Notes: generated by a model not told the origin, from the letters alone. A stretch of DNA of 64,000 nucleotides from an uncultured Gammaproteobacteria bacterium (GCA_964360965.1 CAYHYM010000004.1:660-64659), one strand, 5' to 3'. Counted from the stretch's first letter, positions 703-24,211 are shown. Numbers and translations: made by a program.

Positions 703-2424
703 TCATTTTCTTTCCACATTAAACAATGGCCCCACAATTTGAATATTAGCCGGAGCCCTTAAATTAAATCTATTTTTAAAATCAGCTCCAGAAAAATTAC
801 TTGTGCCCCCATCACCTGATATATTAACCGAAGTGGTGGCTCCTGCCCCAAAATCCGCAGAGACTGACACAGATGAAATATTATTGTAAGCAGTCACTCC
901 TTTATTCCTTAACTCTTGTTTGACTTTTTCTTCATCCCAATTGTCAGTGCCTGCAGGATTAGCTTTATCTGTCTGATAAAGATGCTCTGTGGTGGAAGAA
1001 TCTGCCTTAACTAAAAGCAGGGTGTTGACAATGTCTGCCACTTCTGAAGCTTTAAGCCAGGCAGTTTTATTATACTGTGCCCTGGAACCCCAGTCACAGT
1101 AAAACCAGGGCGAATCTTTATCATAAGCTCCGGCTTTAAGATCATCAAACCCTGAAGCATTGCCGGAAACAGTATCAACTCCATGTTTGGTCCAGGAAGT
1201 TGAGGACCAACCTATTTCCCCCGATGAGAGAATATAACCTCCGTGGGTGGAAGAATACCAGGCTTTCACAGGGCTACCACCAGTTACCATCACCCAACCC
1301 CGGGTATCATTAACTGCACTTTCCCAAGCCCCGCCTTTTGGATCAGACTTAAAAACCTGACATTGTTCGCTGGTGCAAATAGAACCTGCACCATTATTGG
1401 TATAGGCCAACCCGTAAGAGCGGGCTGCCACAGCTTGAGCTTTTAGTGCCTCCGGATGAAAACTATTGGGCATCTCATAAATTCTTTTGACATAATCCTC
1501 AATGGAGCCGGACCAACCGGTGGTAGTGGAAATTTGGATGTTGGTATCATAATCTTTTTTAAGTTCAAAATTAGCATAATAGGCATTAAGAATTGTTTCG
1601 ACATTTTGGCCGCTTCTGGCTCTACCATCTGCCCCAAACTGATTCATGCCGGTCCTATTAGGCACTCCATAAGTAAAAAGGGCGAGCCTGGGGGAAAAAC
1701 CAGGATCTTTATCCCGATCATCCACACAAGCGCCTAAAGTGGCAGCTGACCTGGATATATTAAGAGAAGCCAGTCTTTGAGATAAGATTTGTTGCTGTCT
1801 GGCTGTTAGTTGGACAATTTTACTGGTCAGCTCTGCTTGATAAGCCTTAGCTTTACCAACCTCACCTCCCAAAAATTTAGCATTTTTATCAACCTGAGCT
1901 TGAAGAGAAGCCAGAGCAGATTTATCAATTTCTAACTTTTCTTTCTGCTTTAGCAGATCCAACACCTCCCCGGTGATGAGGGAGATAATCTGTCTGTCTT
2001 CTCTGGTGGCTTTTTGCCGCAAAGATAACTCTCTAAATAAATGGCTGGGGTTTTGAGATGATAAAATTACCAGCAAGGGTGAGGATAAATAGGTACGGAT
2101 ATAATATGAGCGGACTCTTTGCTCAAGCAGGGCTTGTTGAGTAATAAGTTTTTCTTCTCTTAATTTGAGCTCTATTTGTTTTTTGCGGATGTTGGTTGAG
2201 AGCAAATCCAAACTGGCCTGAATTTGGTTAAGCTGTCTTTTTAAACCCTCCAGCTGTCCTTCCAGGGGTTTGGTAGCAGAAATGGACAGCTCACGGGCTT
2301 TATTTAACTCATTAATTTGCTTTTGTAAATCCTCTATTTCATCAGCCTTGACAGGGGTAAGGGTATAGGGTATAGGGTATAGAAAAACAAATAATAGAAA
2401 TAAAAAAAGAATAATTTTTTTCAT
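703..2424 (-). CDS. secreted coiled-coil protein with C-terminal SpoIID/LytB-like domain (peptidoglycan-remodelling)
   Basis: Signal peptide, long heptad-repeat region, C-terminal motifs AARSYGL...CTSEQCQVF...STHGGY typical of the SpoIID/LytB domain. Confidence 0.65.
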   Translation of the reverse strand: MKKIILFLFLLFVFLYPIPYTLTPVKADEIEDLQKQINELNKARELSISATKPLEGQLEGLKRQLNQIQASLDLLSTNIRKKQIELKLREEKLITQQALLEQRVRSYYIRTYLSSPLLVILSSQNPSHLFRELSLRQKATREDRQIISLITGEVLDLLKQKEKLEIDKSALASLQAQVDKNAKFLGGEVGKAKAYQAELTSKIVQLTARQQQILSQRLASLNISRSAATLGACVDDRDKDPGFSPRLALFTYGVPNRTGMNQFGADGRARSGQNVETILNAYYANFELKKDYDTNIQISTTTGWSGSIEDYVKRIYEMPNSFHPEALKAQAVAARSYGLAYTNNGAGSICTSEQCQVFKSDPKGGAWESAVNDTRGWVMVTGGSPVKAWYSSTHGGYILSSGEIGWSSTSWTKHGVDTVSGNASGFDDLKAGAYDKDSPWFYCDWGSRAQYNKTAWLKASEVADIVNTLLLVKADSSTTEHLYQTDKANPAGTDNWDEEKVKQELRNKGVTAYNNISSVSVSADFGAGATTSVNISGDGGTSNFSGADFKNRFNLRAPANIQIVGPLFNVERK

Positions 2425-2654: not shown

Positions 2655-3893
2655 ATGTCCAAATCACTATTAAATATCTCCACATCTTTGTTAATTATCC
2701 TGGGGTTGTTTATTTATTACGCACCAAATATTGAGGCTGCTTCTGGCACGTGTATCAATAAAGATAGAAAGGGGGTAATTATTTCTACGGCCATTTGGCC
2801 AGATGATGTTCTTATTAATTTGTCAGTAAACGTCACTGTTCAATTTACCAATCAAACAGTTGCGGGTAAATACTTTGTTATCCTAAGCGACGGTAAACCA
2901 ATTGGCGCCCAAGACTACTCATCTCAAATAGTTGATCTTACCACAAGCCAGCTACGAAATGGAATAGAAGTGACTTTCCCTATTGGTCCTGTTACTGAGT
3001 ATAGAGATTCTTACTACGTCAAACTACAAAGAGAGGGGTTTGGAGATATTTGTGAGCCTAGTAATTTAGGCACTATTGCAGTAGCTAACATCAGCGATAA
3101 TAAGCTAAAAAAAACTCAATGTTCCATCTCTGTTCCCGGCAATATTCAAATAGGTGATAACTTAACCATTAAATATAGCGTTTCCAATCCTCCCTCTGAA
3201 AATTCCAGATTTATTCCCCTAATTTTTAAAACAAGTAATTTTGCCAAAATGCCTACAGGTGTTTATAGAGCAACCGGGGCTCCCTTGGGAGATTTTGCCA
3301 ATACCTTAATCACCCCAAAATACTTAAAACAAGACCAGGTAACAGATCTAACCTTTCCCACTGATACAGGCACATTTAATCAAATTGAAAATTTTACAGC
3401 AGCGATGGCAGTTCAGGATGACTCCTCGGTACCAGGAGATGAAGCTAGATTATATATTTGTAAATCCGCTAATTTTAGTACCAGTAATAACCCTACGACT
3501 CCTGCCGGAACTCCTGCTACATCTGCACCTGCTGGTTTTCCAAAAGCCGGTACTGGATCAGGGGGAGGAGAAAAATGTACTTCAGGGTTTTTAGATGAAA
3601 AAAATAATCCTGTGCCGGCAATAGATACTGCCATAGGCTGTGTGCCCACAGAACCGGTGGCTTTTATCAAGGCTTTTTTGCGATTTACCCTGGCCACTTT
3701 TGGAGGGATAGCCTTTTTAATCATGGTAATGGGAGTATTTCGGATGATCACCTCTGCCGGTAACCCTGATGCGCTGAAAGCAGGACAGGAAATGTTTACC
3801 AGTGCCATTATTGGCATTTTATTTATTATCTTTTCCGTACTGCTTTTACAAATAATAGGAGTTGGTATACTAAATATACCTGGATTCAGATGA
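2655..3893 (+). CDS. secreted protein with C-terminal T4SS pilin-like (VirB2/TrbC-like) hydrophobic module
   Basis: Signal peptide; the C-terminal 80 aa (FRMITSAGNPDALKAGQEMFTSAIIGILFIIF) are paralogous to the downstream small pilin-like ORFs. Confidence 0.45.
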   Translation: MSKSLLNISTSLLIILGLFIYYAPNIEAASGTCINKDRKGVIISTAIWPDDVLINLSVNVTVQFTNQTVAGKYFVILSDGKPIGAQDYSSQIVDLTTSQLRNGIEVTFPIGPVTEYRDSYYVKLQREGFGDICEPSNLGTIAVANISDNKLKKTQCSISVPGNIQIGDNLTIKYSVSNPPSENSRFIPLIFKTSNFAKMPTGVYRATGAPLGDFANTLITPKYLKQDQVTDLTFPTDTGTFNQIENFTAAMAVQDDSSVPGDEARLYICKSANFSTSNNPTTPAGTPATSAPAGFPKAGTGSGGGEKCTSGFLDEKNNPVPAIDTAIGCVPTEPVAFIKAFLRFTLATFGGIAFLIMVMGVFRMITSAGNPDALKAGQEMFTSAIIGILFIIFSVLLLQIIGVGILNIPGFR

Positions 3894-4561
3894 AACTAAT
3901 CGCCCAACAAATTCCCGGAATTCCATATTTATTAAACTGTAACCCGGTCAATCAAACAGGCTGTCCACCTGGCCAGAGCGTGCCCAGGACTGGTGCTTTA
4001 AATTTTACCAGCCTGGGGGATTTTATCTTCGGACTCTTAAACATTGTCTTTTCCATTGCCGTATTTTTGGCCTTTTTCTGGCTGGTGTGGGGAGCTTTTC
4101 AATATATTACCTCAGGAGGGAATAAGGAAAGATTGGCTGCTGCCAGGGCCAGAATCACCTGGGCCATTGTGGGATTACTGCTGGTGGCAGTTTCCTTTCT
4201 AGTAGCCCAATTTTTGGCTCAGGTTTTACCTCCCCAAAAAGGAACACCAATTTTGTCAGTACCGACCGCTTATGCTGCTGTTGATATTGGCAAGGAGTAT
4301 GGTTTTGGAGATATCCGGTCTTTAGGAGAAGGGGTCACTAAACTGGTTGCTCCCACCTTTTCCATTGCCACCACGGTGGTGATAATATATTTTTTAATGG
4401 GAGCTTTTAAATTTTTAACCTCAGGAGGGAATAAGGAGGCCACTGCTTCTGCCCGTGGTATGATTACCCATGCCATTGTGGGATTTATTATTTTAATGTT
4501 TGCTTTTTTGATTTTACAATTTATTCCACAAGCTTTTGGCTTAAATTTTTCGTTGTTTTAA
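3890..4561 (+). CDS. VirB2/TrbC-like pilin, tandem-duplicated module
   Basis: Two copies of the motif W.GAF.(Y/F)(I/L)TSGGNKE...AR..IT.AIVG, each followed by a hydrophobic helix; start overlaps the upstream stop (ATGA). Confidence 0.55.
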   Translation: MKLIAQQIPGIPYLLNCNPVNQTGCPPGQSVPRTGALNFTSLGDFIFGLLNIVFSIAVFLAFFWLVWGAFQYITSGGNKERLAAARARITWAIVGLLLVAVSFLVAQFLAQVLPPQKGTPILSVPTAYAAVDIGKEYGFGDIRSLGEGVTKLVAPTFSIATTVVIIYFLMGAFKFLTSGGNKEATASARGMITHAIVGFIILMFAFLILQFIPQAFGLNFSLF

Positions 4562-5055
4562 TGATAAAAAAAATAGTTATTGTAATTTTAATAAATGTCT
4601 TTTTGGGATTAGGGACATCTTCTGTCTATGCTCTTCATGTGCCACCCGGCGCTACTTGTAATCCAATAGACCCGGCAGATCATTGTAACATTGGCTATTC
4701 TTGTCTACCGGTAACAGGTACTCCGGGCCACCAATGCTTAAGACCCCAATCCACAGACACCATTGGTAAAATCAGTGCACCATTAGCCATACAAGCTTTG
4801 GGTATAGGTAATATAGGCATCAGCAAATTTTTAAATAATTTAGTCACCCTAATTTATATTTTAGCCACTGTTGTTTTAGTCTTTATGTTTTTATGGGGAT
4901 CTTTGGAGTGGTTAACATCAGGAGGGGATAAGGAAGCTGTAGGAAGAGCCAGAGGCAGGATTATTAATGCCCTGGTGGGAATTATTCTTTTCGGGGTGGC
5001 TTATGCCATACTGCGGCTGTTGGGAACATTTACCGGCTTTACATTTTTCCAATAA
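4561..5055 (+). CDS. VirB2/TrbC-like pilin paralog
   Basis: Signal peptide plus LWGSLEWLTSGGDKEAVGRARGRIINALVGIILFGVAYAIL motif. Confidence 0.55.
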   Translation: MIKKIVIVILINVFLGLGTSSVYALHVPPGATCNPIDPADHCNIGYSCLPVTGTPGHQCLRPQSTDTIGKISAPLAIQALGIGNIGISKFLNNLVTLIYILATVVLVFMFLWGSLEWLTSGGDKEAVGRARGRIINALVGIILFGVAYAILRLLGTFTGFTFFQ

Positions 5056-5056
5056 A

Positions 5057-5806
5057 TTAAGAACCTCCTCCATAACGAGGTCCTTGCCCTCCACCGCCGC
5101 CTCTTCTACCCTTTCCGAAGAATCTGATAACTCTGATAACCAGGTTCATCAAAAATACCGGTATTGCTATAACTGCTACCAAACTGCCTATTACAGCAAG
5201 AATGGCGCCTGCGGATATACCTACAGTCTTTCCTATCTCCACCACCATCTTGGGTACACCACCTGGTGAGTCAGGTGCTATTTTACGGCCTTCTATATCT
5301 TTGATAAATTCAGCCTCATACTCTTTAGCTTCTTGCTCTGTCTCCTGTCTTGCCCGCTCAAATGCCTTTTTATTTTCTTCCTGCTGTTTTGCATCAGCCT
5401 GAGCAGTTTTTTTTGATTGTTCCCAGATTACTCGCTGCTCAGGGGTCATTTTTTCCAGTAGCTCCATTTCATATGGAGTGAGTGTGGGAACCCTTTCAGG
5501 AGTGGTTACCCCTGGCCTTTCTGTTGCTCTGAGTGTGGAAGTTTTTGTTTCCACTATCTGAACACCAGCTGGTTGTTTTGGCGCCTCTCCCACTACTGGT
5601 GCGGGTTGGCTGGTAGTGTCAGCACTAAGATCCAGACAGGCAGCTGAGAAAAATACCAAACCCACCATGGGAGCTAATAAGGCTACTCTTGAAGCCGGGA
5701 GCGCTTTTCTGGTTCTTACCACAATATCATCTGCCGCTACTATGGCGCTGGATGGTTCTATCAACTCATTTAAAACTGCTGGTTCTGTTTCTTTCATATC
5801 ATCCAT
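5057..5806 (-). CDS. membrane-anchored hypothetical protein with Gly-rich C-terminal tail
   Basis: ORF with an N-terminal and a C-terminal TM helix, a charged coiled-coil middle, and a GGGGGQG tail; no recognisable catalytic motif. Confidence 0.35.
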   Translation of the reverse strand: MDDMKETEPAVLNELIEPSSAIVAADDIVVRTRKALPASRVALLAPMVGLVFFSAACLDLSADTTSQPAPVVGEAPKQPAGVQIVETKTSTLRATERPGVTTPERVPTLTPYEMELLEKMTPEQRVIWEQSKKTAQADAKQQEENKKAFERARQETEQEAKEYEAEFIKDIEGRKIAPDSPGGVPKMVVEIGKTVGISAGAILAVIGSLVAVIAIPVFLMNLVIRVIRFFGKGRRGGGGGQGPRYGGGS

Positions 5807-6107
5807 TCTTAGGTCCTTTTAAAGTTTCCAGATAATCTTTTTTAAAATTTTCCAATTCATGCAAAATTTTTGTCTGAAGAGATGGAATCAGACTGCCTAA
5901 CATATTAATTATCACCTTACCGTCTTTCTGCTTAGTAATTTTCCCCAGTTGTTCTGTGGTAAGATCAGCGGAAAGCCTTAATAACACATACTCGCCTATT
6001 TTACTGTTTAAATGCTGCCGCATCTTATCTGTCTCCTCTGTTGATTGAGAGACGGTATTAATATTCAAAAAAATAATTGGATCAAAATCTTTTAGACTAA
6101 TCAACAT
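5799..6107 (-). CDS. hypothetical protein
   Basis: 102-aa ORF whose 5' end overlaps the 3' end of the 5057..5806 gene; no recognisable motif. Confidence 0.3.
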   Translation of the reverse strand: MLISLKDFDPIIFLNINTVSQSTEETDKMRQHLNSKIGEYVLLRLSADLTTEQLGKITKQKDGKVIINMLGSLIPSLQTKILHELENFKKDYLETLKGPKNG

Positions 6108-6186
6108 ATTAATCCTATAGATATATTATACCACAAATTTAGCACTTGACAAATAGATAACTTACTGCATATGATAAAATTAAGAT

Positions 6187-6567
6187 ATGAAAAAAGTTGC
6201 CTCAATTTTCTCTGCCTTTGGTTATCTAATATCTGCAGGAGCAGCTTTTGCTCAAACCATTACCATTGAAAGACCTGAGATCAGCGGCAAAAAGGTGGGC
6301 TTTTTAGATGTCAACCAATTCATCAAAAATGGGGTGACCCTGGCTTTTATTATTGCCCTGGTGATTGTTTTTATTATGCTGGTGTGGGGGTCAATTCAGT
6401 GGATTTTTTCCGGAGGATCAAAGGAGAATCTGGAGGCTGCCAGAAATAGAATCATTCACGCTCTGGTAGGCTTGGCTATTTTGGCGGTGGCTTTTGCCAT
6501 TATTCAGCTTTTTGCCACCTTTGTGGGTGTTAATCTACTTGATCTAAAAGTACCATCTCCAATATAA
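6187..6567 (+). CDS. VirB2/TrbC-like pilin paralog
   Basis: Signal peptide plus MLVWGSIQWIFSGGSKENLEAARNRIIHALVGLAILAVAFAII motif. Confidence 0.55.
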   Translation: MKKVASIFSAFGYLISAGAAFAQTITIERPEISGKKVGFLDVNQFIKNGVTLAFIIALVIVFIMLVWGSIQWIFSGGSKENLEAARNRIIHALVGLAILAVAFAIIQLFATFVGVNLLDLKVPSPI

Positions 6568-6576
6568 TTTTAGAAT

Positions 6577-6861
6577 ATGGGGCCACCTGAAGCTGGTTTA
6601 ACTCAAATTGAAGACACTTTTAAAAATGCCATCTCTGTTTCAGTGGGACTGGCTTTTGTGGCTTTGGTGGTGGTGCTGATCTGGGCAGGCATTAAATTTT
6701 TAACCTCAGGAGGGGAGGCTAAAGCCCTACAGTCTGCCACACAGACCGTCACCTGGGCTCTTCTGGGAATTTTATTTCTGGCCATAGCCTGGCTGGTGTT
6801 GCTGCTGATTAAAATCTTTACCGGAATAGATGTGACAACTTTTAACATTCAGGTTTTATAG
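6577..6861 (+). CDS. VirB2/TrbC-like pilin paralog (divergent)
   Basis: LIWAGIKFLTSGGEAKALQSATQTVTWALLGILFLAIAWLV motif. Confidence 0.5.
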   Translation: MGPPEAGLTQIEDTFKNAISVSVGLAFVALVVVLIWAGIKFLTSGGEAKALQSATQTVTWALLGILFLAIAWLVLLLIKIFTGIDVTTFNIQVL

Positions 6862-6909: not shown

Positions 6910-8505
6910 ATGTCTGTTAAGAAATTAATCTTCAGCTTAGCGGTATCTTTGGCATTTCTTTTGCTACCTGCTACCAACCACCAGCTATTAACTATCTCTG
7001 CTCAAACTACCACTTCCTCTGCCACTGCCTCTACAGCCATCAAACCATTGGGCATAGTCAGCTTTCAATCCCCACAATATATCAACCTGCAAATGATAAA
7101 CCTGATGCACTCTGCCAGTTGCTTGATAAGCGGCATCTCTCCCATAAACCAACCTTGCGTGGAATACATTGGGGGTATCCCCGTACTTTCCTCTGTTAAC
7201 CTATCAGGCGGTATGTTGGGTACTATCAGCACAGGATTGGCACTACTTTATACAAATCCTCCCATCAAAAGCATTGAATACCTGGGTAGTATAGGGGACA
7301 GTTTAAGTTTTTTTGAAGTTAAACAGGCCCAAGCTCAGGTGGGAGGCTCTGGCAGCAAGGTATTATCTCCGGTTTTGGACCTTTGGAAAGTTTCAAGGAA
7401 CATTGCCTATCTAACTATAATGATCATTTTTGTGGTGATTGGGGTGATGGTGATGTTTAGGAACAGAATCAATCCTCAAACAGTCATCACAGTCCAGGCA
7501 GCCCTGCCAGGCCTGGTGATTGGACTCATACTTATTACTTTCAGTTATTTTTTGGCAGCACTATTGGCAGATATTGCTTTTGTGGGCTCAAATATAGTCG
7601 GCCATTATTTTACCATTGCCCAAAGTCAAGCCATCTCTGTCAAAGGACCGGTGAACACTCTAGAAAACGAAAATGTCTTAAGTATCTTTAGCAGATTTTT
7701 TAACACCACCTCCAAAGAACAGTTTATTCCCCTATTTGACACCATCTTTAAAAACCTGCCCACACCAGCCGCTTTAGATATTTTGACTCCTGCCCGTATG
7801 TTTACTTATGTTATTGTGGGAATGACTAACCAAATATTAACCTTAACTGGTATATCCTCTATACCTGTAGCAGGCACTGCTACAGGTATATTTACAGGTA
7901 TTAAAGGACTAACAGATGCACAGGCTACAGGATCATTTTTAGTATGGCTGATCTTAATACTAGTACTGATGTATTCCATGTTTAGAGTACTTTATCGTTT
8001 GATAATCAGTTATTTAACCATCATCTTTTTAACCATCACCGCCCCTTTTCATTTTTTAATTGCCGCTTTCCCGGGAAGACAAGAGGTGGTGACTGTTTGG
8101 GCCAGAAACATGCTGGCCAATATCCTGGTTTTTCCCGGAGTGTTGGCCATATTTTATTTTGCCGGCTATCTGATGGGGCCCACATTATTAACAAGCGCCG
8201 GTGGAGCAGGAGGATTAACTCTTAGTGATCTACTCAATATTAACAATCAATTGGGTGTGGCAGGAGCAAAAACACTGCCGCTTTTGGGAGGATTGGATCA
8301 AACAGTGATCCAGTTAATTCTGGCTTATGGCGCGCTGATTGCCGCACCAGCCATTCCGGAAATTATCATCAATGCCATAGGTAAAGTTGGTCCTGCCGGA
8401 CAGACCATTGGTAGAGAGGTGACTGGAGCTATACAAAGCGGCAGAGGATACCTGCAACAAGGAGCCGGGGCAATTGGTGGAGCCTTGGGAGGCGGTAGAC
8501 GTTAA
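6910..8505 (+). CDS. VirB6/TrbL-like polytopic membrane protein
   Basis: Signal peptide, then at least six hydrophobic helices and a Gly-rich C-terminus; position next to the pilin genes in a T4SS-like locus. Confidence 0.45.
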   Translation: MSVKKLIFSLAVSLAFLLLPATNHQLLTISAQTTTSSATASTAIKPLGIVSFQSPQYINLQMINLMHSASCLISGISPINQPCVEYIGGIPVLSSVNLSGGMLGTISTGLALLYTNPPIKSIEYLGSIGDSLSFFEVKQAQAQVGGSGSKVLSPVLDLWKVSRNIAYLTIMIIFVVIGVMVMFRNRINPQTVITVQAALPGLVIGLILITFSYFLAALLADIAFVGSNIVGHYFTIAQSQAISVKGPVNTLENENVLSIFSRFFNTTSKEQFIPLFDTIFKNLPTPAALDILTPARMFTYVIVGMTNQILTLTGISSIPVAGTATGIFTGIKGLTDAQATGSFLVWLILILVLMYSMFRVLYRLIISYLTIIFLTITAPFHFLIAAFPGRQEVVTVWARNMLANILVFPGVLAIFYFAGYLMGPTLLTSAGGAGGLTLSDLLNINNQLGVAGAKTLPLLGGLDQTVIQLILAYGALIAAPAIPEIIINAIGKVGPAGQTIGREVTGAIQSGRGYLQQGAGAIGGALGGGRR

Positions 8506-10196
8506 AAGCTCTTAATCACTTTTTGCCAAATAAATTTCCCCATTCCCTTAAACAAGAATCCATCAACCAACCATACCCCGTTAACAAAAAAGTTTGTTCC
8601 TGCAGAAGCATTAAAATGTCTCATTAAATCCTCGGCTTGATCCTCACCAGTAGCTCCCTTTGTCTCATTAATTGCCCAGTAAAATTGTGGTCTACCCCAT
8701 CTATTATAAGATTTGGTGAATTCATTGCGAAGTTTTAGTACTCTTTGGCCCTCATCTGTATTAACATAGTTTAAAATCTGTCCCAGAACAAAGGCTCTGA
8801 CTTTTTGTGGTTCTGCAGCACCATAATAGCTCAGAGAATTAAAATTACCAGCAAGCTCATTAAATGATTTTACTATATCAGGCATATTCTTTTCAGGATC
8901 ATCCAAAGCTCTAGCAGGTGATATCAGGGGACTGTTAATAAATCCACCAAGAAGTTTATCTACTAAATCGTTTGTTCCATTAACAATTACAGACCAGCCG
9001 TAAAATGAGGTGTCCGGATTATCTTTAAGTTTATCGCGTAACTCAAGCAGATTTTTACACTTGAGAAAATAGCTTAAAGATCTGGCATGGGTATCAAAGG
9101 CCCCAATCAACTGTCTGGCTTGAACTGCAGAATGTTCTCTACTTGCCAAAAACTCCGGGGTAAATATCAATTTGGTCCAAAGATAGGGGGAATTGCCTGA
9201 TAACTGAGAATATTTACTCCTATCACTACCACTATATTCAAAGTGGTACGCTGGATTTGCCCATTGATTAACCCACTCTCTCCAGTACAGATTATTTGTC
9301 ATATCTATTTTTTGACCCTTAAATACATTATTTAAAATTTGCTGTTCAACTAATTCTCCATCTTTTGTCAGGGGACCAGTAAAACGGGTGATGTCTGCGG
9401 TGGCTATATATAACCTGTAAGTTAACACAGCAGCCAATTCAGCTTGTTTTTTATCTAAACTTTGATTTTTTTGCAGTTGTTCTGATATTTGGTTTATTAT
9501 CATCTCTTTTTCTTTATCACTTTTTTTATAACTTCTAAAAACCTGGCCATTACTTTTTTCCACCCACTCAACTCCCTCTCTGACTCCCTCTATATCCCAT
9601 GTCCAATTAAATGCCTCTCTAAATATAACAGCTGCCACCAATTCTGCAAATTTTGGTCCAGCTCCAAAATTAACAGTCCACTCTGCACCACTCAGACATG
9701 CTCTAACCATGAACATCTTTTGTGCTTTTTCTATTTCCTCTATTTCTTTTTCACCAGCACCTGATCCCATTTTAGCACTCACCAACGTATCAAATAATTC
9801 CTGATATTTATTTATCTCAGCCAGAGGTGACATGTCCTTCGCGCCTACAATATTAGGCATACGGTCTTCTAATCTAATGATTAAAGCATCAGCTATTTTC
9901 TTAATTTGCTCTGGTGTCTGATCTGGTCTAAATGGACCAAGACCTGCAAACATCTCTGCCCCACCTTCCATCCTGGGTATTCTGGCTACTTCTTGACCGG
10001 TTTGTGGATCAAAATAAACATGGTACTTCCCTTCTACTTTAGAAGGATAATCTACCTGGGGATTTAGTTCTGGAGAACGAGTCGCCCCCACAACACTTTT
10101 TCCTGCTTCAGGAACCACCTCTTTTACTATTGGAGTAGGATTAGGTGATTCATTTTCCGGACTATCTGATCCCTCTGCCATAATCTCTCTAGCCAT
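8502..10196 (-). CDS. hypothetical protein (564 aa), embedded in T4SS-like locus
   Basis: Long ORF with no recognisable Walker or other catalytic motifs; overlaps the VirB6-like gene end by 4 nt. Confidence 0.4.
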   Translation of the reverse strand: MAREIMAEGSDSPENESPNPTPIVKEVVPEAGKSVVGATRSPELNPQVDYPSKVEGKYHVYFDPQTGQEVARIPRMEGGAEMFAGLGPFRPDQTPEQIKKIADALIIRLEDRMPNIVGAKDMSPLAEINKYQELFDTLVSAKMGSGAGEKEIEEIEKAQKMFMVRACLSGAEWTVNFGAGPKFAELVAAVIFREAFNWTWDIEGVREGVEWVEKSNGQVFRSYKKSDKEKEMIINQISEQLQKNQSLDKKQAELAAVLTYRLYIATADITRFTGPLTKDGELVEQQILNNVFKGQKIDMTNNLYWREWVNQWANPAYHFEYSGSDRSKYSQLSGNSPYLWTKLIFTPEFLASREHSAVQARQLIGAFDTHARSLSYFLKCKNLLELRDKLKDNPDTSFYGWSVIVNGTNDLVDKLLGGFINSPLISPARALDDPEKNMPDIVKSFNELAGNFNSLSYYGAAEPQKVRAFVLGQILNYVNTDEGQRVLKLRNEFTKSYNRWGRPQFYWAINETKGATGEDQAEDLMRHFNASAGTNFFVNGVWLVDGFLFKGMGKFIWQKVIKSF

Positions 10197-10232
10197 CTTC
10201 CTTTCCTCCGTCTATAGTATATTATACCATAC

Positions 10233-11096
10233 TTATGGCTTCCAACCGCATTGGGGACAATTGGTTAACTGCCCTGCCTGAATTTTTTTCACTTCTTCAT
10301 CATTGGCCACCCAAGAACATATGTTACAACAAATCTCAGGACAGTTCTCTGAGGAGTTGGAGTGGGCCAAAAAGGCCTTAAAAGCAGTTAATCCATCCAT
10401 TCTAATGGGACAGCTGATAACCACACCCTGTCCAAACATATCTCTTACTTGTTCTGCATTAAAAAAGCTATCATAGATCCTCTCAGCTTGTTCCAAAGCT
10501 TTTTCTTGATCTTTTAAATCCTGACCTGTTTTTATCTTTTCCCAAATCTCCGGAGCTACAATTAACTCTTTGAGGGTGTCTATCCAATCCCCGGCGCTGA
10601 AAATTAAAGGAGTAGATCTGACTGAATTTAAGCTCAACAAAAGAGGCCTATTTTGACTTCGCTCAGCCAAAGCTTGAGCCCGCTCCAAACAATCCTCATA
10701 TCTTAAGTTTAATATGATGGCTCTGTTAAGCAACCTTTTTTGACTGTTTGGGTGTAAAATTTCACTAATAATTAGTTTAGATGTGGGATAATATACTGAG
10801 TCCTGAGGACTGATCCAAACCGCTGCACCTGCCTCACTATCCCTAAACCATCTATTAATAAAATCAAAAGCCTGACCTTCTAATTGACCCACCAAATTAT
10901 CTCTTTTAATAATACTGGCAACTTTACATTCCGCGGTTGGGGAATATAAATCACCATCTTTATCTTGCACAAAACAGTAAGCATCGGGAGATCTTCTTGA
11001 TTCCTGGAGGCAGGAGGTTATCTCCGGGATCGCTTGTGTTCTATTATCTTTCCAGGAAGGAGCGAAATCTTTAATTAATGTATCAGCTTCAAGCAT
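10233..11096 (-). CDS. hypothetical protein with C-terminal Cys-rich zinc-ribbon-like motif
   Basis: C-terminal CPEICCNICSW...CPQCGW; otherwise no recognisable domain. Confidence 0.4.
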   Translation of the reverse strand: MLEADTLIKDFAPSWKDNRTQAIPEITSCLQESRRSPDAYCFVQDKDGDLYSPTAECKVASIIKRDNLVGQLEGQAFDFINRWFRDSEAGAAVWISPQDSVYYPTSKLIISEILHPNSQKRLLNRAIILNLRYEDCLERAQALAERSQNRPLLLSLNSVRSTPLIFSAGDWIDTLKELIVAPEIWEKIKTGQDLKDQEKALEQAERIYDSFFNAEQVRDMFGQGVVISCPIRMDGLTAFKAFLAHSNSSENCPEICCNICSWVANDEEVKKIQAGQLTNCPQCGWKP

Positions 11097-11258: not shown

Positions 11259-12266
11259 TTGTATGATCGTGTGAGTATGGAACCGCATCCCATTCCCCAA
11301 AATGTCACCTCGTTTGAGTTTCATCTGGTGGGTGACATGACCTTAAAACAATTTATGTTTTTATCATCAGGTTTGGGGGTATCTTATCTGTTATTTGTTT
11401 TTCTCTCTCCCCAAAACCCGTTTCTGGCCTATCCTTTAATTCTGCTGTTTTCCTTTTTAGGAGTGGCTTTTGCTTTTATGGGCATTGCTGACCGGTCTTT
11501 AGATCATTGGCTTTGGGTTTTCATCAAAGCAGTTTTCTCCCCCACCAAAAGAGTCTGGGGAAAGGCAGGTAAATCGTATGCTCAAAATAACCTGTTTTCC
11601 CAAAGGAGCGCTTTTTTTAACCAGGTAGTCCAAACATCATCCTCCCCTTTTGAGCCAATAACCTCTCCTGTTGCTCAAACAAATGTCCAGCCCCTGCCCA
11701 CAGAAGAGGAGCTGCAAAAAACAGTGACTTTGGCCAGAGAGGCCCAAAGTTTGCAGACTAGAATTATTGAATCAGAAAGACAGCTGGAAAGCATCAAGGT
11801 CACTCCCCAAAATATTTCACCCCAGCAAATTGAGGCAACCTTATCAACCTTACAAAAACTGGTCACTGAAACTTCCGGTATTAAAGAACAACTACTCAGA
11901 GCCACTCACCAAAAAGAGCAGCCAAAGCCTTCTGAAGTCAAAATCACTCCCGCCTCTTTTCAAAGACCAATACAGGCGGTGCTAACTTCCCTGCCCAATG
12001 TGATAAATGGTGTTGTCAAAGATGCTTTGGGCAATTTTTTGGAAGGGGTGGTGGTGGTAATTTATAACAAAGAAGGCCTGCCAGTCAGAGCCTTAAAAAC
12101 CAATAAACTGGGTCAGTTCTCAGGCTCCACCCCCTTGCCAAACAACAGTTACAGAATTGAACTGGAAAAGGATGATCTGTTATTTGATATTTTGCAAATA
12201 GATTTAACAGGCCTGGTTTTACCTGCCATGGAAATTTTATCTAAAAAAAGGGTTTTTCAGACATGA
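11259..12266 (+). CDS. PrgI/VirB3-like T4SS membrane protein with long C-terminal extension
   Basis: N-terminal FEFHLVGDMTLKQFMFLSSGLGVSYLLFVFL followed by a second TM helix, resembling the PrgI/VirB3 family; directly upstream of VirB4. Confidence 0.45.
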   Translation: MYDRVSMEPHPIPQNVTSFEFHLVGDMTLKQFMFLSSGLGVSYLLFVFLSPQNPFLAYPLILLFSFLGVAFAFMGIADRSLDHWLWVFIKAVFSPTKRVWGKAGKSYAQNNLFSQRSAFFNQVVQTSSSPFEPITSPVAQTNVQPLPTEEELQKTVTLAREAQSLQTRIIESERQLESIKVTPQNISPQQIEATLSTLQKLVTETSGIKEQLLRATHQKEQPKPSEVKITPASFQRPIQAVLTSLPNVINGVVKDALGNFLEGVVVVIYNKEGLPVRALKTNKLGQFSGSTPLPNNSYRIELEKDDLLFDILQIDLTGLVLPAMEILSKKRVFQT

Positions 12267-12982
12267 ATACCACCCAGCAACATCTTCAGATGGAGGATAT
12301 AAAAGATGATCTGATGATTTTGAAAAATGGCGGAGCGGCTTTGATTTTACAAAGCTCAGCTTTAAATTTCGGGCTGTTATCAGAGGTTGAACAACACTCA
12401 GTGGTGTTGTCTTTTGCCCAGATGCTCAATTCCCTGTCTTTTCCCATCCAGATTATGATTTATTCCCAAAGGCTCAATATTAACTCATATCTTCATTTGT
12501 TGGAGCGAGCCCGAACAATGCAGAGGAATCCCCTTCTTTCTCAAATGATTGACCGTTATAAAAACTTTGTGACTCAGGTTATTAAAGAAAATGATGTTTT
12601 GGATAAAAAATTTTATGTCATAGCCTATACCTCTTCTTTGGAGATGGGATTTGGTTTTAAAAATAAGGAGGCAAGATTAAAAAGAGCTCAAGCCATACTT
12701 TGGCCAAGAAGGGATCAGCTGATAAGGCAACTGGCCCGAGTGGGGCTAAAAGCAAACCAGCTGACCAGCCTGGAAATGCTGCAGCTTTTATATGATATTT
12801 ATAACGGGGCGCAGCAGGATGTTCTACAAATTCCTCCTGTCAAACTTTCTCCCCCTCCACCTCCCCCAAACCCACCCCGGCCAAATCCAGTTCAAACAGC
12901 AGCTGCGCCACCTTCGCAAACTATTATAAATCAACCTAAAAATCACCCTTTTGTGGTGGAGGAACTGGAGGATAATGTTTAA
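12263..12982 (+). CDS. VirB4-like ATPase, N-terminal domain (separate ORF or frameshifted fragment)
   Basis: Resembles the CagE/TrbE/VirB4 N-terminal domain; Pro-rich C-terminal tail; overlaps the next ORF (ATGTTTAA start/stop overlap). Confidence 0.4.
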   Translation: MNTTQQHLQMEDIKDDLMILKNGGAALILQSSALNFGLLSEVEQHSVVLSFAQMLNSLSFPIQIMIYSQRLNINSYLHLLERARTMQRNPLLSQMIDRYKNFVTQVIKENDVLDKKFYVIAYTSSLEMGFGFKNKEARLKRAQAILWPRRDQLIRQLARVGLKANQLTSLEMLQLLYDIYNGAQQDVLQIPPVKLSPPPPPPNPPRPNPVQTAAAPPSQTIINQPKNHPFVVEELEDNV

Positions 12983-14705
12983 GGGCACACCCCAATTAAC
13001 CCTGGAGGATATCATCGCCCCCCAAGAACTGGAGATTGATTTTAATCATCTTAAAATCAATGACAGATTTTACCGCACCTATTTTATCTCCAGCTACCCG
13101 CGATTTGTGGAGCCTAACTGGCTGGAACCTTTAATTTCTTTTGACCATTCGCTTTTTATCTCCATGTTTGTCTATCCCACCTCATCCAGGGGGGTGCTGG
13201 ATGATCTACGGCGCAAAATTGCCGAGATGGAAGCCACCATAGAAGGTGATGTTGAGCGTGGACGGGAAATTGATCCAACAGTCAGAGTGGCTTTGGAGGA
13301 TGCCCAGTCTTTACAGGAAGAACTGGTTAGGGGGGTGGAGAGATTTTTCCAGTTTGCCCTCTATATCAGCGTGCCTGCCCAAGATAAGGAGGATTTGCAA
13401 AATACCTGCCAGCTTTTTGAATCCACTGCCTCCTCTTTGTCTTTGAGCGCCCAGCCAGCCAGCCTGCAAATGGAAGATGGCTTTAAATCCAGTCTGCCTT
13501 TGGGATCTGACCTGTTGTATCTGACCCATAATATGGACACCCCAGCTCTCTCCACCACTTTTCCTTTTGCTTCGTCGGAGCTGACAGCCAATGAGGGAGT
13601 GATGTATGGCATCAATGCGCATAATGACTCCCTGATTCTTTTTGACAGGTTTTCTTTAGAGAATGCGAATTCAGTGGTGTTTGCCAAATCCGGCGCGGGA
13701 AAATCATATTTTGTTAAACTGGAAATTTTAAGGTCTTTAATGTTTGGCACGGAAATTTTGGTGATTGATCCTGAGAATGAATATTTAAACCTGTGCCAGG
13801 CAGTGGGAGGCGAATATATTAACTTTTCCGCCACCTCTGCTGTTAAGATCAATCCTTTTGATCTGTCTTTAAGCTTATCTCCTGAGGAAAATGAGCTGGG
13901 CAGAAAGATATTATCTTTGACCGCCTTTTTAAAACTGGTGTTGGGCCAGCTAAACCCCCAGGAGGCGGCCATTTTGGATCGGGCTTTAAAACAAACCTAC
14001 AGGTTAAAAGGCATCACTGATGACCCTAAAACCCAAATTCAGCCCCAGATAAGCACCCCTTTAATGGAGGACCTTTATAAAATACTCATCGGTATTGAAG
14101 AAAAACCGGCTCTGGATCTGGCAGCACGCTTAGAAAGATTTATCAAAGGCTCGCTGACCGGTATTTTCTCCTCTCACTCAAACATCAATCTGTCCTCCTC
14201 TTTCACTGTTTTTTCCATCCGGAATCTGGCAGACCAGCTGCGGCCTTTGGCCATATTTATGATCCTGGAATATATCTGGACTAAAATACGCTCACAGCTT
14301 AAAAAAAGAATCCTGGTGGTTGATGAAGCCTGGTATTTGATGAGAAATGAGGATTCGGCCAATTTTCTGGTGGATATTGCCAAAAGAGCCCGTAAGTATT
14401 TTTTGGGACTGACCACCATCACCCAGGATGTGGAGGATTTTTTAGGTACTGACCGGGGCAAAGAAATCATTGCCAATTCCTCCATTCAGGTACTTCTTAA
14501 ACAAGCCCCATCATCCATTGAAAAAGTGGGGGGGACATTTAATCTGTCAGAGGGAGAAAAAAGGCTGCTTTTATCAGAAGGGGTGGGAGAGGGACTCTTT
14601 TTTGCCGGCAATACTCATGTGGCCATGAGAGTGGTGGCCTCACCAGAAGAACACAAATTAATTACCACCAGTCCGCAGGAAATATTGGCAAGACAAAACA
14701 TTTAG
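12951..14705 (+). CDS. VirB4/TrbE/PrgJ-like T4SS ATPase (C-terminal two-thirds)
   Basis: Walker A AKSGAGKSYF, Walker B LVVDEAWYLM, and the surrounding VirB4-type conserved blocks. Confidence 0.75.
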   Translation: MWWRNWRIMFKGTPQLTLEDIIAPQELEIDFNHLKINDRFYRTYFISSYPRFVEPNWLEPLISFDHSLFISMFVYPTSSRGVLDDLRRKIAEMEATIEGDVERGREIDPTVRVALEDAQSLQEELVRGVERFFQFALYISVPAQDKEDLQNTCQLFESTASSLSLSAQPASLQMEDGFKSSLPLGSDLLYLTHNMDTPALSTTFPFASSELTANEGVMYGINAHNDSLILFDRFSLENANSVVFAKSGAGKSYFVKLEILRSLMFGTEILVIDPENEYLNLCQAVGGEYINFSATSAVKINPFDLSLSLSPEENELGRKILSLTAFLKLVLGQLNPQEAAILDRALKQTYRLKGITDDPKTQIQPQISTPLMEDLYKILIGIEEKPALDLAARLERFIKGSLTGIFSSHSNINLSSSFTVFSIRNLADQLRPLAIFMILEYIWTKIRSQLKKRILVVDEAWYLMRNEDSANFLVDIAKRARKYFLGLTTITQDVEDFLGTDRGKEIIANSSIQVLLKQAPSSIEKVGGTFNLSEGEKRLLLSEGVGEGLFFAGNTHVAMRVVASPEEHKLITTSPQEILARQNI

Positions 14706-14720
14706 TGGTAACCTAAGGTT

Positions 14721-16709
14721 ATGGCTGCCAGAGACACCCAACTTTTTAGACTGCTTTTTGAACCCAATGGAGTGATCGTTCAGTTTTACAAAAATCCCCA
14801 AACAGCTTATGTGGTGGCTGGTGGACGCTATTTTAGTAAAAGAGCTACTCTGAGACTGCTGCGTTTTCTACTACCTGGCTATAGAGTCTATCAAGAGGAT
14901 AATCAGCTGGTTGAACAATTATACAGAAATCAGGCTGTTGATTTTAACATCAAAAGTTTAACATTTTACACACCAGAACCCATCCTATCAGAATTTGCTC
15001 ACAATCAGTTAGAAAAAATAGACCAACTACCTATTGAAGTCAGAGAACAAACTCAAAACCTATGGGCAGAAAGGTGGCAACTACCACAAAACCAAAAAGA
15101 AGTTGATCTTCATTATTTACTGAGACTTCCCCACCGAATCCCCATAATAATAAAAAGATTAATTATCCATAACATCCCCCCATTAAAAGCGTTGAGGTAT
15201 TATCAGGTTAAAGCACAAATTTTTGCCAAAAGACTTCTCAGAAGAGTTATTACAACAAGACTGACTACAGGTTTAATTGGGGCGGGGATAGGGGGTGGTC
15301 TGGCAGGACTACCCGGAGCATTAATGGGGGCTGCTTCAGGGTGGTTTGCTCCCTCTTTTATTGCCGGCGGTGGTGGTAGTTTACTTTTCAGGATAGGTGG
15401 ACTTTTGACGGGTGGGGGCAGCAATATTTTATTGGGGCTGGGTAGATTGGCTCTTGTCTCTTTCCCTGTTACAGCTGTGGTGGTGGCTGTAGGACTGACT
15501 GTATTACTTATTATTGTTGTTATTATTTTACCCACCGCCCAACTAACTCCATCTCCTATTGTCGAAGCTGGATTGGTTGGCAATCTTAACAGTTGCCGGT
15601 TTACCAGGGATGCGGTGTTAAGACCGGTTAAAAGCGCCGGGCTTTTGAAAATTTTTCAAGAGGTAGCTGCTCAATCCGGGGTTCCCGCATCAGTGCTTGC
15701 TTCGGTAGCCATGCATGAAAATCCCATTTTTACATCTTCGGCCGAAGATAGTCACGATGTTTTTGGTAATGTTGGTTTTAGTGGCCTGGATTGTTTACCG
15801 CATTTTCCCACCTCAGATACCGGAGCTTTGGGACTGATGCAGGTACAGCCTCCCAAAAATATTCACGATCAAATCAAGTCAAAAGCAGTACCCTCTTTTG
15901 AAAAAGTAGCAGCTTATTCTGAAACCGGGGTAACAATTGGCGCACAGTTTGTGGGTAAAACTGCAGATTCTCTAACATTTCAGGATTTTTGCGATATTAG
16001 AACCAATATCTACCTGGGGGCTGGAGTTTTAATCAGTAAAAATGGCGGTAAACCACCTGCCACTCCAGATGAGGTGGAGGAAGCTGTCTGCCGTTACTTT
16101 GGAGGAAGCTGTTTTTACCCTCATCCTGTAAGTGGACCGTATCACTATGGTACAGAGGCCAGAAAAGATTTTGACAGCTGCCAGCAATTATTGATAGCTT
16201 CCACTGCTTGCCCGTCACAGGGGGGAAAGATCAAAACACCATCTTATCAAATCAATCCCTCTATTGGCCACTGCAGTCCATTTTATGGAGTATGCCCTAC
16301 CAACAGTCGCAGAGCCAAAGCCATTGATGTGGATACCAGAGGACAAGATATCATCTTTCCCACCATTTTAGGGCAAAAAGTAAGTTGGCAGTACCTAACA
16401 CAGTTCTTGCTTAATAAATCAGGTGATTGTGAACTGGGGCTTTCTTCTTGCGGGATTGGGGTGGTCTTCCAAACCAGTGTGGACACTGATACCTGGGTAC
16501 TACATTTACTTCATCTGGACAGTAACAACACCCTGTCCTTTAAGCCAGGATTATTGGCTGATTCTGGAACGGTTGTTGGTAAAACCATCCCCGGGGTTTT
16601 CCTGCATGTTAACATAGGCAAGAATATTAAAAACCCCGACAGTCCTTCCGGGGGTGATAAAGACTTAGATCCTGGCTGGATAGCGGCAGATTTTATGTGT
16701 AACCAATGA
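14721..16709 (+). CDS. VirB1/PrgK-like cell-wall hydrolase: Gly-rich TM region + lytic transglycosylase (SLT) domain + Cys-rich C-terminal putative peptidase domain
   Basis: SLT motifs AMHEN...GLMQV; Gly-rich membrane segment; C-terminal Cys-rich region with an HLLHLD segment. Confidence 0.55.
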   Translation: MAARDTQLFRLLFEPNGVIVQFYKNPQTAYVVAGGRYFSKRATLRLLRFLLPGYRVYQEDNQLVEQLYRNQAVDFNIKSLTFYTPEPILSEFAHNQLEKIDQLPIEVREQTQNLWAERWQLPQNQKEVDLHYLLRLPHRIPIIIKRLIIHNIPPLKALRYYQVKAQIFAKRLLRRVITTRLTTGLIGAGIGGGLAGLPGALMGAASGWFAPSFIAGGGGSLLFRIGGLLTGGGSNILLGLGRLALVSFPVTAVVVAVGLTVLLIIVVIILPTAQLTPSPIVEAGLVGNLNSCRFTRDAVLRPVKSAGLLKIFQEVAAQSGVPASVLASVAMHENPIFTSSAEDSHDVFGNVGFSGLDCLPHFPTSDTGALGLMQVQPPKNIHDQIKSKAVPSFEKVAAYSETGVTIGAQFVGKTADSLTFQDFCDIRTNIYLGAGVLISKNGGKPPATPDEVEEAVCRYFGGSCFYPHPVSGPYHYGTEARKDFDSCQQLLIASTACPSQGGKIKTPSYQINPSIGHCSPFYGVCPTNSRRAKAIDVDTRGQDIIFPTILGQKVSWQYLTQFLLNKSGDCELGLSSCGIGVVFQTSVDTDTWVLHLLHLDSNNTLSFKPGLLADSGTVVGKTIPGVFLHVNIGKNIKNPDSPSGGDKDLDPGWIAADFMCNQ

Positions 16710-16716
16710 AAAGCCA

Positions 16717-17163
16717 ATGAAAAAAGTAGTTATAGTTTTTATAATCATCTTTGCTATTATATCCATAACCAGAATTATATCCATAAACAGATCTGTTTTT
16801 CTAAAACCAGAACAGCTACCCACTGTTGCACCAGAACAATTAAAAATTATCTCCACCAACCCCCACCCCCTGGATGAGGCAACCATTCTACCCACCCAAA
16901 ATATTGAATTTACTTTTAATAAACCCCTGTTTAGAAGCCAGTTTAAACACAAGTTTGATCCGGACATTGAACATGAGGTAGAAGTTATTGACGGCCGGGA
17001 TAAAGAGTTTGGACAAACCTTCAAAATAGTTTTTAAAAAACCACTGGAACTGGGCCTGGGATATGCTTTATTTGTATTTACCAACACTAAAACAGAGGGG
17101 GGTCTATTTTTAGATAAAGAGTATGTTTTCCATTTTCAAACTATTAAATACAAAGGCTTTTAA
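16717..17163 (+). CDS. small membrane-anchored hypothetical protein
   Basis: N-terminal TM helix, no recognisable motifs. Confidence 0.3.
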   Translation: MKKVVIVFIIIFAIISITRIISINRSVFLKPEQLPTVAPEQLKIISTNPHPLDEATILPTQNIEFTFNKPLFRSQFKHKFDPDIEHEVEVIDGRDKEFGQTFKIVFKKPLELGLGYALFVFTNTKTEGGLFLDKEYVFHFQTIKYKGF

Positions 17164-23784: not shown

Positions 23785-23794
23785 AAATATTAAT

Positions 23795-24211
23795 ATGAAA
23801 CTGATTATATATACAGATGGGGCATCAAGAGGTAATCCAGGCCATGCCTCATATGGTTTTACCATCTCTGATGAAAAGGGAGAGTTGATTTATCAGGAAG
23901 GGAAATATATTGGTATAGCCACCAATAATGTGGCTGAATATATGGCTGTTTTAAAAGCGCTAAAGTATGTGGAAAAAGAATTTTCGAGCAAAACCCCTGT
24001 TCAGATAGAACTTTTCGCAGACTCAATGCTGGTTGTAAAACAGCTTTCAGGTCAATTCAAACTTAAAAATGAAAAGCTTAAAGTTTTTTTTGATCAAATC
24101 AAAATACTGGAACTTTCTTATGAAAGGGTTTTTTACAACTACATTCCCCGCCAGAGGAACAAACTGGCGGATAAATTGGCCAATCTGGCATTGGATCTTA
24201 AGCTACATTAA
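23795..24211 (+). CDS. rnhA: ribonuclease HI
   Basis: IYTDGASRGNPG...AEYMAVLKAL...LFADSMLVVKQ catalytic blocks; start taken at the internal MKLIIY Met. Confidence 0.7.
   Translation: MKLIIYTDGASRGNPGHASYGFTISDEKGELIYQEGKYIGIATNNVAEYMAVLKALKYVEKEFSSKTPVQIELFADSMLVVKQLSGQFKLKNEKLKVFFDQIKILELSYERVFYNYIPRQRNKLADKLANLALDLKLH

Follow-up and report, generated by a model that had tools for sequence, protein, structure and literature searches.

An array of six T4SS_pilin-family hairpin modules, two of them fused, in the origin region of a Daviesbacteria-type genome

Five plus-strand open reading frames (ORFs) within positions 2655-6861 of a 64,000-nucleotide stretch of DNA (GCA_964360965.1, CAYHYM010000004.1:660-64659; the whole stretch is hereafter the window) encode six helix-loop-helix modules of ~75 residues, which we call A, B1, B2, C, D and E. 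The genomes closest to the window are those of Candidatus Daviesbacteria (Microgenomates), within the candidate phyla radiation (CPR), and an identical gene B is present in 0.1-um metagenome assemblies from Hainich groundwater. We analysed the family identity of the modules, their conservation among related genomes and the genes that surround them, which include components of a type IV secretion system (T4SS).

Six hairpin modules in five genes

The genes of the array and their parts are as follows.

2655..3893, plus strand: gene A, 412 aa; predicted signal peptide at residues ~1-28, immunoglobulin (Ig)-like beta-rich ectodomain at 29-331 with six conserved Cys, hairpin helices at 334-365 and 371-404
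~3654-3866, plus strand: C-terminal hairpin module of gene A
3890..4561, plus strand: gene B (B1-B2 fusion), 223 aa
4004..4228, plus strand: module B1, gene B residues 39-113
4268..4276, plus strand: A127-Y128-A129, predicted signal-peptidase-I-type site in the B1-B2 linker
4313..4558, plus strand: module B2, gene B residues 142-223
4561..5055, plus strand: gene C, 164 aa; predicted signal peptide ending VYA, ~60-aa Cys-rich segment, hairpin module at nt 4810-5052
6187..6567, plus strand: gene D, 126 aa; predicted signal peptide ending AFA and hairpin module at nt 6301-6564, from hydrophobic segments
6577..6861, plus strand: gene E, 94 aa; hairpin module at nt 6598-6858, without signal peptide

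Every module consists of two hydrophobic helices on either side of a polar loop, as judged by AlphaFold2 (AF2) models of A and B and by hydrophobicity scans, and all six can be aligned without gaps over ~75 residues at pairwise identities of 14-44%. An SGG-centred block lies at residues 75 and 178 of the gene B product, 120 of C, 75 of D and 44 of E, and gene A carries the variant block TSAGNPD at residue 367. An earlier interpretation of the window, made from its sequence alone (the sequence-only reading), had proposed that the pattern W..SGG.KE..AR.RI recurs across these ORFs. All of the ORFs and block positions exist, but the full pattern is literal only in B1, C and D: in B2, M replaces W and MI replaces RI, and E departs from it with SGGEAK, AT, TV and LG. 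The loops of B1 and C each contain four lysines plus arginines, that of D three and that of B2 two. A hidden Markov model (HMM) built from the six modules identified no seventh in the six frames of the 64-kb window, the next-best match having E=0.59. Predicted N-terminal hydrophobic leaders ending AxA are found in A, C and D and in neither B1 nor E; in gene C, the hydrophobic segments span residues 1-19, 94-112 and 137-155. Gene C looks broken into two ORFs (82 and 56 aa) in a second assembly (L001); a run of N at L001 3096-3165 (~ window 4793-4809) marks this split as an assembly artefact.

Pfam searches assigned PF18895 (T4SS_pilin; gathering threshold 26.6 bits) to B (1.2e-13, 51.4 bits, in two stretches), C (9.5e-11, 42.1 bits) and D (3.3e-8, 33.9 bits). 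E scored 8.4e-6 (26.2 bits, 0.4 below the cutoff) and A scored E=0.044 (14.3 bits), with most A orthologs carrying a precomputed PF18895 annotation. All 34 di-domain homologs, in which two modules share one chain, matched the family as well. Because PF18895 matches independently, the similarity among the modules exceeds chance. Gene B also passed the cutoff of NCBIfam NF045849 (40.8 bits, cutoff 40), to which D and E gave weaker matches. Holin families were absent from the Pfam results, PHROGs gave no match for any protein of the cluster, no class III prepilin leader (G/FxxxE) was found in any of the five proteins, and the Pfam output contained no type IV pilus (T4P) pilin family. The suggestion that the modules form a pilin family is therefore supported in one specific sense, that of PF18895 T4SS pilins within a T4SS cluster that also encodes PrgI/VirB3 and VirB4 proteins, and the non-pilin match (to holins, for example) that could have told against it did not appear. 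Nothing singles out any one of the six as the 'major structural subunit' of which that suggestion spoke.

Conservation of the array and its two unusual subunits

A scan of relatives with one genome per species yielded 52 related loci. With paralog classes assigned by module HMM and best match (C and D are close, and D sometimes scores as C), the exact order A-B1-B2-C-D-E was found in 27 of the 52, and further loci truncated by contig ends are consistent with it. Flanking synteny is also kept, with a SpoIID-domain gene upstream and genes for a polytopic protein, then PrgI and VirB4, downstream. Mean ortholog identity to the window is 62% for A, 54.5% for B1, 61.3% for B2, 55% for C, 49% for D and 61% for E, so that orthologs are on average 49-62% identical, compared with 14-44% for paralogs within a genome. 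The ratio of non-synonymous to synonymous substitution rates (dN/dS) between orthologs is 0.11-0.25, indicating purifying selection, with dS near saturation in every ortholog pair but B versus L056; the best-behaved pair, B versus an ortholog at 80% identity, gave dS 0.72 and dN/dS 0.165. The six-paralog set is old, fixed and under purifying selection. These six orthologous groups in fixed order contradict the 'ongoing duplication and diversification' that the sequence-only reading had seen here. Nor is the copy that ends ORF 2655..3893 degenerate, as had been thought, the orthologs of A being the most conserved of the six (mean 62% over 27 genomes).

The paralog dN/dS that had been suggested as a check is not meaningful, since B1 and B2 are near saturation (proportion of synonymous differences, pS, 0.59; ~54-55% nucleotide identity), and ortholog dN/dS was used instead. 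With only 54% nucleotide identity, B1 and B2 are unsuitable for cassette recombination, and a search for long repeats, silent cassettes and invertible elements turned up none in the array. Across 11.8 kb, two independent assemblies of the population are distinguished by a single synonymous nucleotide polymorphism. B1 and B2 agree at 85-90% of positions in a 39-nt block (4090-4128 versus 4399-4437), with ACCTCAGGAGGGAATAAG matching at 18 of 18 nt; in the fused orthologs L056, L004 and L006 the block is 51-62% identical. This pattern suggests short-tract gene conversion, which would have given TSGGNKE in both B loops in this lineage.

Gene B had been described as internally duplicated. Its halves are fused neighbours: most relatives encode B1 and B2 separately, frequently in genes that overlap by 4 nt, and the two form a single ORF in the window and in 39 non-redundant homologs. 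Judged by these comparisons, gene B is a fusion of two adjacent, long-diverged paralogs. A neighbour-joining tree of B2 modules implies at least 13 transitions between fused and unfused states; since this tree is unreliable and built from short sequences, we claim only that both states are widespread. The AF2 model of B contains four helices (42-74, 79-112, 145-177 and 182-215) packed in one four-helix bundle (predicted template-modelling score, pTM, 0.66).

The linker of the fusion retains what appears to be a processing motif. Among 95 unfused B2 proteins, 68 have a canonical signal peptide ending P-(A/V)-(Y/F/H)-A right before (A)VDIG..(Y/F)GFG, and 10 begin with Met exactly at the point of the mature B2 N-terminus. 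At the position where the unfused signal peptide ends, (A/V/S)-x-A is kept in 39 of 39 fused proteins (-3 is A 26 times, V 12 times and S once; -1 is always A), and A129 is invariant in an alignment of 34 fused homologs. Because three architectures converge on one mature B2 N-terminus, we infer a cut after A129, and we give internal cleavage of the fusion an even chance. The cut would be made most simply by signal peptidase I, with the second helix of B1 serving as an internal signal, and one translation product would then supply B1 and B2 at 1:1. Mature B2 would begin AVDIGKEYGFG, and the N-terminal B2 peptides predicted for a cut after A129 are AVDIGKEYGFGDIR.

Protein A combines a conserved hairpin with a variable ectodomain. 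Its homologs are 55-75% identical over the final 22-33% of the protein, and most are unalignable over the N-terminal 300 residues, where some bear Fn3 or Big domains instead. Full-length relatives keep the six cysteines and a TAIGCxPT motif ahead of the first helix. The AF2 model of A (predicted local distance difference test score, pLDDT, 77) comprises the signal peptide, a beta-rich ectodomain and the hairpin, and Foldseek related it to tandem Ig-like/Fn3-like beta-sandwiches (Fabs, complement MG domains and RbmA). Since diversification between genomes lies in its ectodomain, A is the best candidate for host contact, and it is likely the tip or adhesin subunit. The idea of antigenic or host-range variation raised in the sequence-only reading survives only when shifted to this protein: the ectodomain of A varies fast between genomes, whereas the hairpin modules do not.

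Genes around the array

The features that interrupt and flank the array are as follows.

703..2424, minus strand: SpoIID/LytB-domain protein with N-terminal coiled coil (TIGR02669, 3.3e-30; PF08486)
5057..6107, minus strand: two genes, of 249 aa (transmembrane (TM) segments, Gly-rich tail) and 102 aa, between C and D
6152-6125, minus strand: divergent promoter-like site (consensus match only)
6146..6175, plus strand: promoter-like site TTGACA-18-TATGAT upstream of gene D, 11 of 12 matches (consensus match only)
6910..8505, plus strand: polytopic membrane protein, 531 aa, with signal peptide and ~6 TM segments by TM scan; candidate VirB6 analogue
11259..12266, plus strand: PrgI-family (VirB3-like) protein (Pfam PF12666, 9.2e-10)
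12263..14705, plus strand: VirB4-like ATPase, divided between an ORF for the N-domain (12263-12982) and one for the P-loop (12951-14705)
17160-18335, minus strand: dnaN, origin region
18936-20267, minus strand: dnaA, origin region

The genes of the array are tightly packed, A and B overlapping by 4 nt (ATGA) and B and C by 1 nt (TAATG), with a gap of 9 nt between D and E. Two transcription units can be read from the array: A-B-C, and D-E together with the polytopic protein. The products of the two minus-strand genes that interrupt it gave no significant Pfam or PHROGs match and no tblastn match in any of the 52 related loci.

The 531-aa polytopic protein, which has no Pfam, NCBIfam or PHROGs match, stands beside the pilins at 41 of the 52 related loci, Saccharimonadales and Levybacteria contigs among them, and is likely a divergent VirB6 analogue; according to the literature, VirB6 is hard to detect in Microgenomatia. 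The N-terminal ORF of VirB4 matched PF26593 (TraC-like) and the P-loop ORF matched PF19044 (1.7e-28) and AAA_10; the two ORFs overlap, and an identical split is found in related loci. In 31 of the 52 related loci, too, the gene for the SpoIID/LytB-domain protein is a neighbour of the array. SpoIID-type enzymes cut peptidoglycan, and for this reason the protein may be a stand-in for VirB1. Among the ORFs scanned, none was recognised as VirB5, VirB1 or an outer-membrane core gene. VirB1 is missing from most Patescibacteria genomes with VirB2 homologues in a 2025 survey (PMC12102498). No relaxase or coupling-protein domain was detected in the 50 larger ORFs scanned, a statement that leaves aside small ORFs and a few without Pfam matches. 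The nearby dnaN and dnaA place the T4SS cluster in the chromosomal origin region; rnpA, yidC and jag come after dnaN/dnaA, and dnaN, dnaA, rnpA and yidC all fall within 15 kb.

Some further genes of the window deserve record in their own right. Three ORFs in the T4SS cluster (564, 287 and 662 aa), at 8502-11096 on the minus strand and 14721-16709 on the plus strand, are patchily conserved in relatives and have no Pfam or PHROGs match, the 564-aa ORF having none in NCBIfam either. A 576-aa protein (38322-40052, plus strand) carries EF-hand_14, Glutaminase and ankyrin repeats in that order, and an asparaginase gene comes after it (40366-41466); this is the layout of eukaryotic kidney-type glutaminase and is unexpected in a CPR bacterium. 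An RNase H/RVT_3-like protein of 150 aa (23759-24211, plus strand) lies among housekeeping genes.

Interpretation and comparison with known systems

We interpret the locus as encoding six co-assembling PF18895 hairpins of a chromosomal, relaxase-less T4SS-like machine in a Candidatus Daviesbacteria-type CPR bacterium, and consider this package as a whole to be reasonably probable. Its parts carry different weights: we are highly confident of the family identity and of the conservation of the six-paralog array, and regard heteromeric co-assembly of the six subunits as evenly poised. Each module would be inserted in the cytoplasmic membrane such that the basic loop (SGG-K-E...R-R) faces the cytoplasm and the variable N-terminal segment lies outside, with cleavable signal peptides serving A, C and D. 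Six non-redundant subunits would be made together in two packed units, A-B-C and D-E-polytopic protein, and with the VirB4 ATPase, PrgI and the VirB6-like protein would form a heteromeric pilus or conduit in which A would be the host-contact (tip/adhesin) subunit. The six would not be alternative antigenic variants. A bolder version, about which we are doubtful, is that the hairpins, instead of being interchangeable pilins, are obligate partners of a heteromer fixed at six subunits in Daviesbacteria, with repeated fusion of neighbours hard-wiring their stoichiometry (two modules here, up to eight elsewhere) and some fusions being re-separated by signal peptidase via the last helix of the upstream pilin.

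Gene fusion is not confined to this lineage. An exhaustive profile search recovered 58,106 representative proteins (E up to 1e-3) and also turned up chains of 3-8 modules. Five to eight PF18895 hairpins per chain, some of them near-identical repeats, occur in P0247, P0248, P0253, P0322, P0360 and locus L065 1777-3435. Taken together, these sequences indicate that the PF18895 family is prone to tandem duplication and fusion, which are recent in other lineages. In P0247, six modules are arranged as two near-identical triplets among four further pilin genes, and the notion of a six-module polyprotein that replaces the whole array was rejected on account of those additional genes.

Several observations weigh against our interpretation. 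The case for co-assembly is drawn from conservation and fusion only. To our knowledge PF18895 proteins have never been observed as a pilus, and their name derives from Pfam curation, genomic context and a published structure-based annotation. PF04956 (TrbC/VirB2) gave only sub-threshold scores (E 0.016-0.064, 14-16 bits, cutoff 27.9) and matched one of the 34 di-domain homologs. Comparison by hhalign with an alignment of eight annotated VirB2/TrbC proteins returned a probability of 0.6%, that is, no relationship; these were annotated plasmid genes retrieved by tblastn with a VirB2 query that proved 99% identical to an annotated virB2. A profile of the di-domain alignment found nothing among PDB sequences at E up to 10. 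The four further pilin genes beside P0247 weaken the strict stoichiometry argument, and chains of 3-8 modules without obvious AxA linkers imply that multi-hairpin chains probably work uncleaved, a hint of an assembly that is membrane-embedded and not extruded. The predicted cleavage site in gene B lies 16-33 residues (median 18) past the end of the second helix of B1, which is longer than a normal signal-peptide c-region, and cleavage may therefore be inefficient or use another protease; because AxA is also kept in 11 unfused B2 proteins whose leader is too short for a signal peptide, the motif could have another role. When the di-domain AF2 model was compared with the PDB by Foldseek, only generic helical bundles were returned (E > 0.8), an uninformative result given that the query is a four-helix bundle. 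Gene B gave no tblastn match at E up to 1 in 72,556 plasmids. Because the layout is VirB2-like yet homology could not be shown, we file the modules, on sequence grounds, under PF18895 and the patescibacterial array, and not under TrbC/VirB2.

Antigenic or host-range variation would make the paralogs alternative versions of one major pilin, arising from continuing duplication and used singly or recombined. It draws on the presence of several divergent paralogs in tandem, the published analogy with the VirB2 paralogs of Bartonella and Anaplasma (PMC12102498), the 39-nt block that suggests occasional short-tract gene conversion between B1 and B2, and the near-identical modules repeated within one gene elsewhere (P0247, P0360). 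We nevertheless judge it quite improbable. The six orthologous groups keep their order in at least 27 genomes and are closer to their orthologs than to one another at dN/dS 0.11-0.25, B1 and B2 share only ~54% of their nucleotides, and the long repeats, silent cassettes and invertible elements that could serve recombination were not found. Start/stop overlaps and the fused pair imply joint expression, and all pilin genes of the Southlakia epibionticum array are reported to be essential (Wang et al. 2023, PMC10633639). Six paralogs that are fixed, collinear and under purifying selection argue for a heteromeric machine over antigenic variation.

That machine need not be a filament. If the hairpins formed a membrane hetero-oligomer within the T4SS, for instance a channel, a platform or a ring that handles lipids, and were never extruded, 'pilin' would be a misnomer. 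The undetected sequence homology to VirB2/TrbC would fit such an assembly, as would the usual lack of pili in monoderm T4SSs of the FATA (Firmicutes, Actinobacteria, Tenericutes, Archaea) type (PMC12102498), the chains of up to eight hairpins (16 helices), which are hard to square with extraction of subunits into a filament, and the single AF2 bundle shared by B1 and B2 (pTM 0.66). We consider it unlikely all the same: the published structure-based annotation is VirB2-like, a signal peptide followed by a hairpin is the classical propilin layout, the 300-residue Ig-like ectodomain of A would be more useful away from the cell, and the AxA site kept in fused forms suggests that free subunits matter. 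That the proteins are T4P pilins or phage holin-like, and not T4SS components, is scarcely credible. They are small and hydrophobic, and Patescibacteria do possess T4P, but the neighbours are VirB4, PrgI and housekeeping genes rather than PilB, PilC or phage genes, none of the five proteins has the class III leader, and profile searches, matching PF18895 and neither T4P pilins, holins nor PHROGs, effectively refute this alternative.

If the bolder version, in which fusion sets the stoichiometry of the six subunits, is correct, the locus would specify a heteropolymeric T4SS conduit built from polyproteins and bearing a fast-evolving Ig-like adhesin, A, for which there is no counterpart in classical T4SSs. 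The subject matters since the only Patescibacterium that is genetically tractable cannot live as an epibiont without its T4SS and pilin array. Through its kept AxA, the B1-B2 fusion offers a simple, testable prediction about processing, and the pairing of a conserved hairpin with a hypervariable ectodomain marks A as the subunit most likely to set host specificity.

Among known systems, the TrbC/VirB2 family (PF04956; the Agrobacterium T-pilus subunit) comes near the modules in layout: both are small, join two hydrophobic helices through a short loop and are encoded beside VirB3 and VirB4 homologues, and the AxA that closes the TrbC/VirB2 signal peptide has a putative equivalent in the leaders predicted for A, C and D. 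Unlike that family, the modules have the loop motif SGGxKE...ARxRI and no significant sequence or profile similarity to it, and some lack a signal peptide, are fused or carry large ectodomains. The Mbov_0395 family (NF045849) of Mycoplasma integrative and conjugative elements, whose cutoff gene B exceeds, also belongs to a monoderm FATA-type T4SS; in Mycoplasma the genes sit on mobile conjugative elements that serve DNA transfer, whereas the present genes lie in a chromosomal housekeeping region in which no relaxase was found. Bartonella and Anaplasma share with this genome the presence of several divergent T4SS pilin paralogs, but variation among theirs is believed to aid immune evasion or host adaptation, whereas the set described here is ancient, fixed and under purifying selection. 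The cutting of polyproteins by host signal peptidase at internal signal-like segments is a general mechanism. Gene B resembles such polyproteins in that the second helix of B1 and a linker ending (A/V)-x-A precede the mature B2 N-terminus, and differs from them in that its cleavage is a prediction and the spacer from helix to site is unusually long (16-33 residues).

The closest parallel is with the arrays described by Quinonero-Coronel et al. (2025), who screened 3,035 genomes of Patescibacteria using the PF18895 and PF04956 profiles and reported 441 arrays of 2-11 pilin genes, with a mean paralog identity of 25% (maximum 54%), near virB4, often near dnaA and usually without a relaxase; speculation about antigenic or host-range roles was already published there (PMC12102498). 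The present array shares with them the tandem PF18895 genes near virB4 (here starting at 12263), sometimes with a non-pilin interruption, the low paralog identity (14-44%), the chromosomal position near dnaA with no relaxase, and the enrichment in Microgenomatia, the class of this genome. Its six modules also recall the six divergent pilins of S. epibionticum, for which a 2025 review raised a pilus-like conduit as a possibility only (PMC12857230). In the main texts of this literature we found no description of fused or multi-module PF18895 proteins ('polypilins'). Measured against the same texts, four features go beyond what they state: the set of six is orthologous and collinear throughout Daviesbacteria, two of its members are fused here with the signal-peptidase motif kept, one paralog class has a hypervariable Ig-like ectodomain, and chains of 3-8 modules occur in public data. 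The array is a further example of a described phenomenon and no new kind of system; it adds modest new details, namely a fusion with a kept cleavage motif and a conserved six-paralog order that includes a variable adhesin-like subunit.

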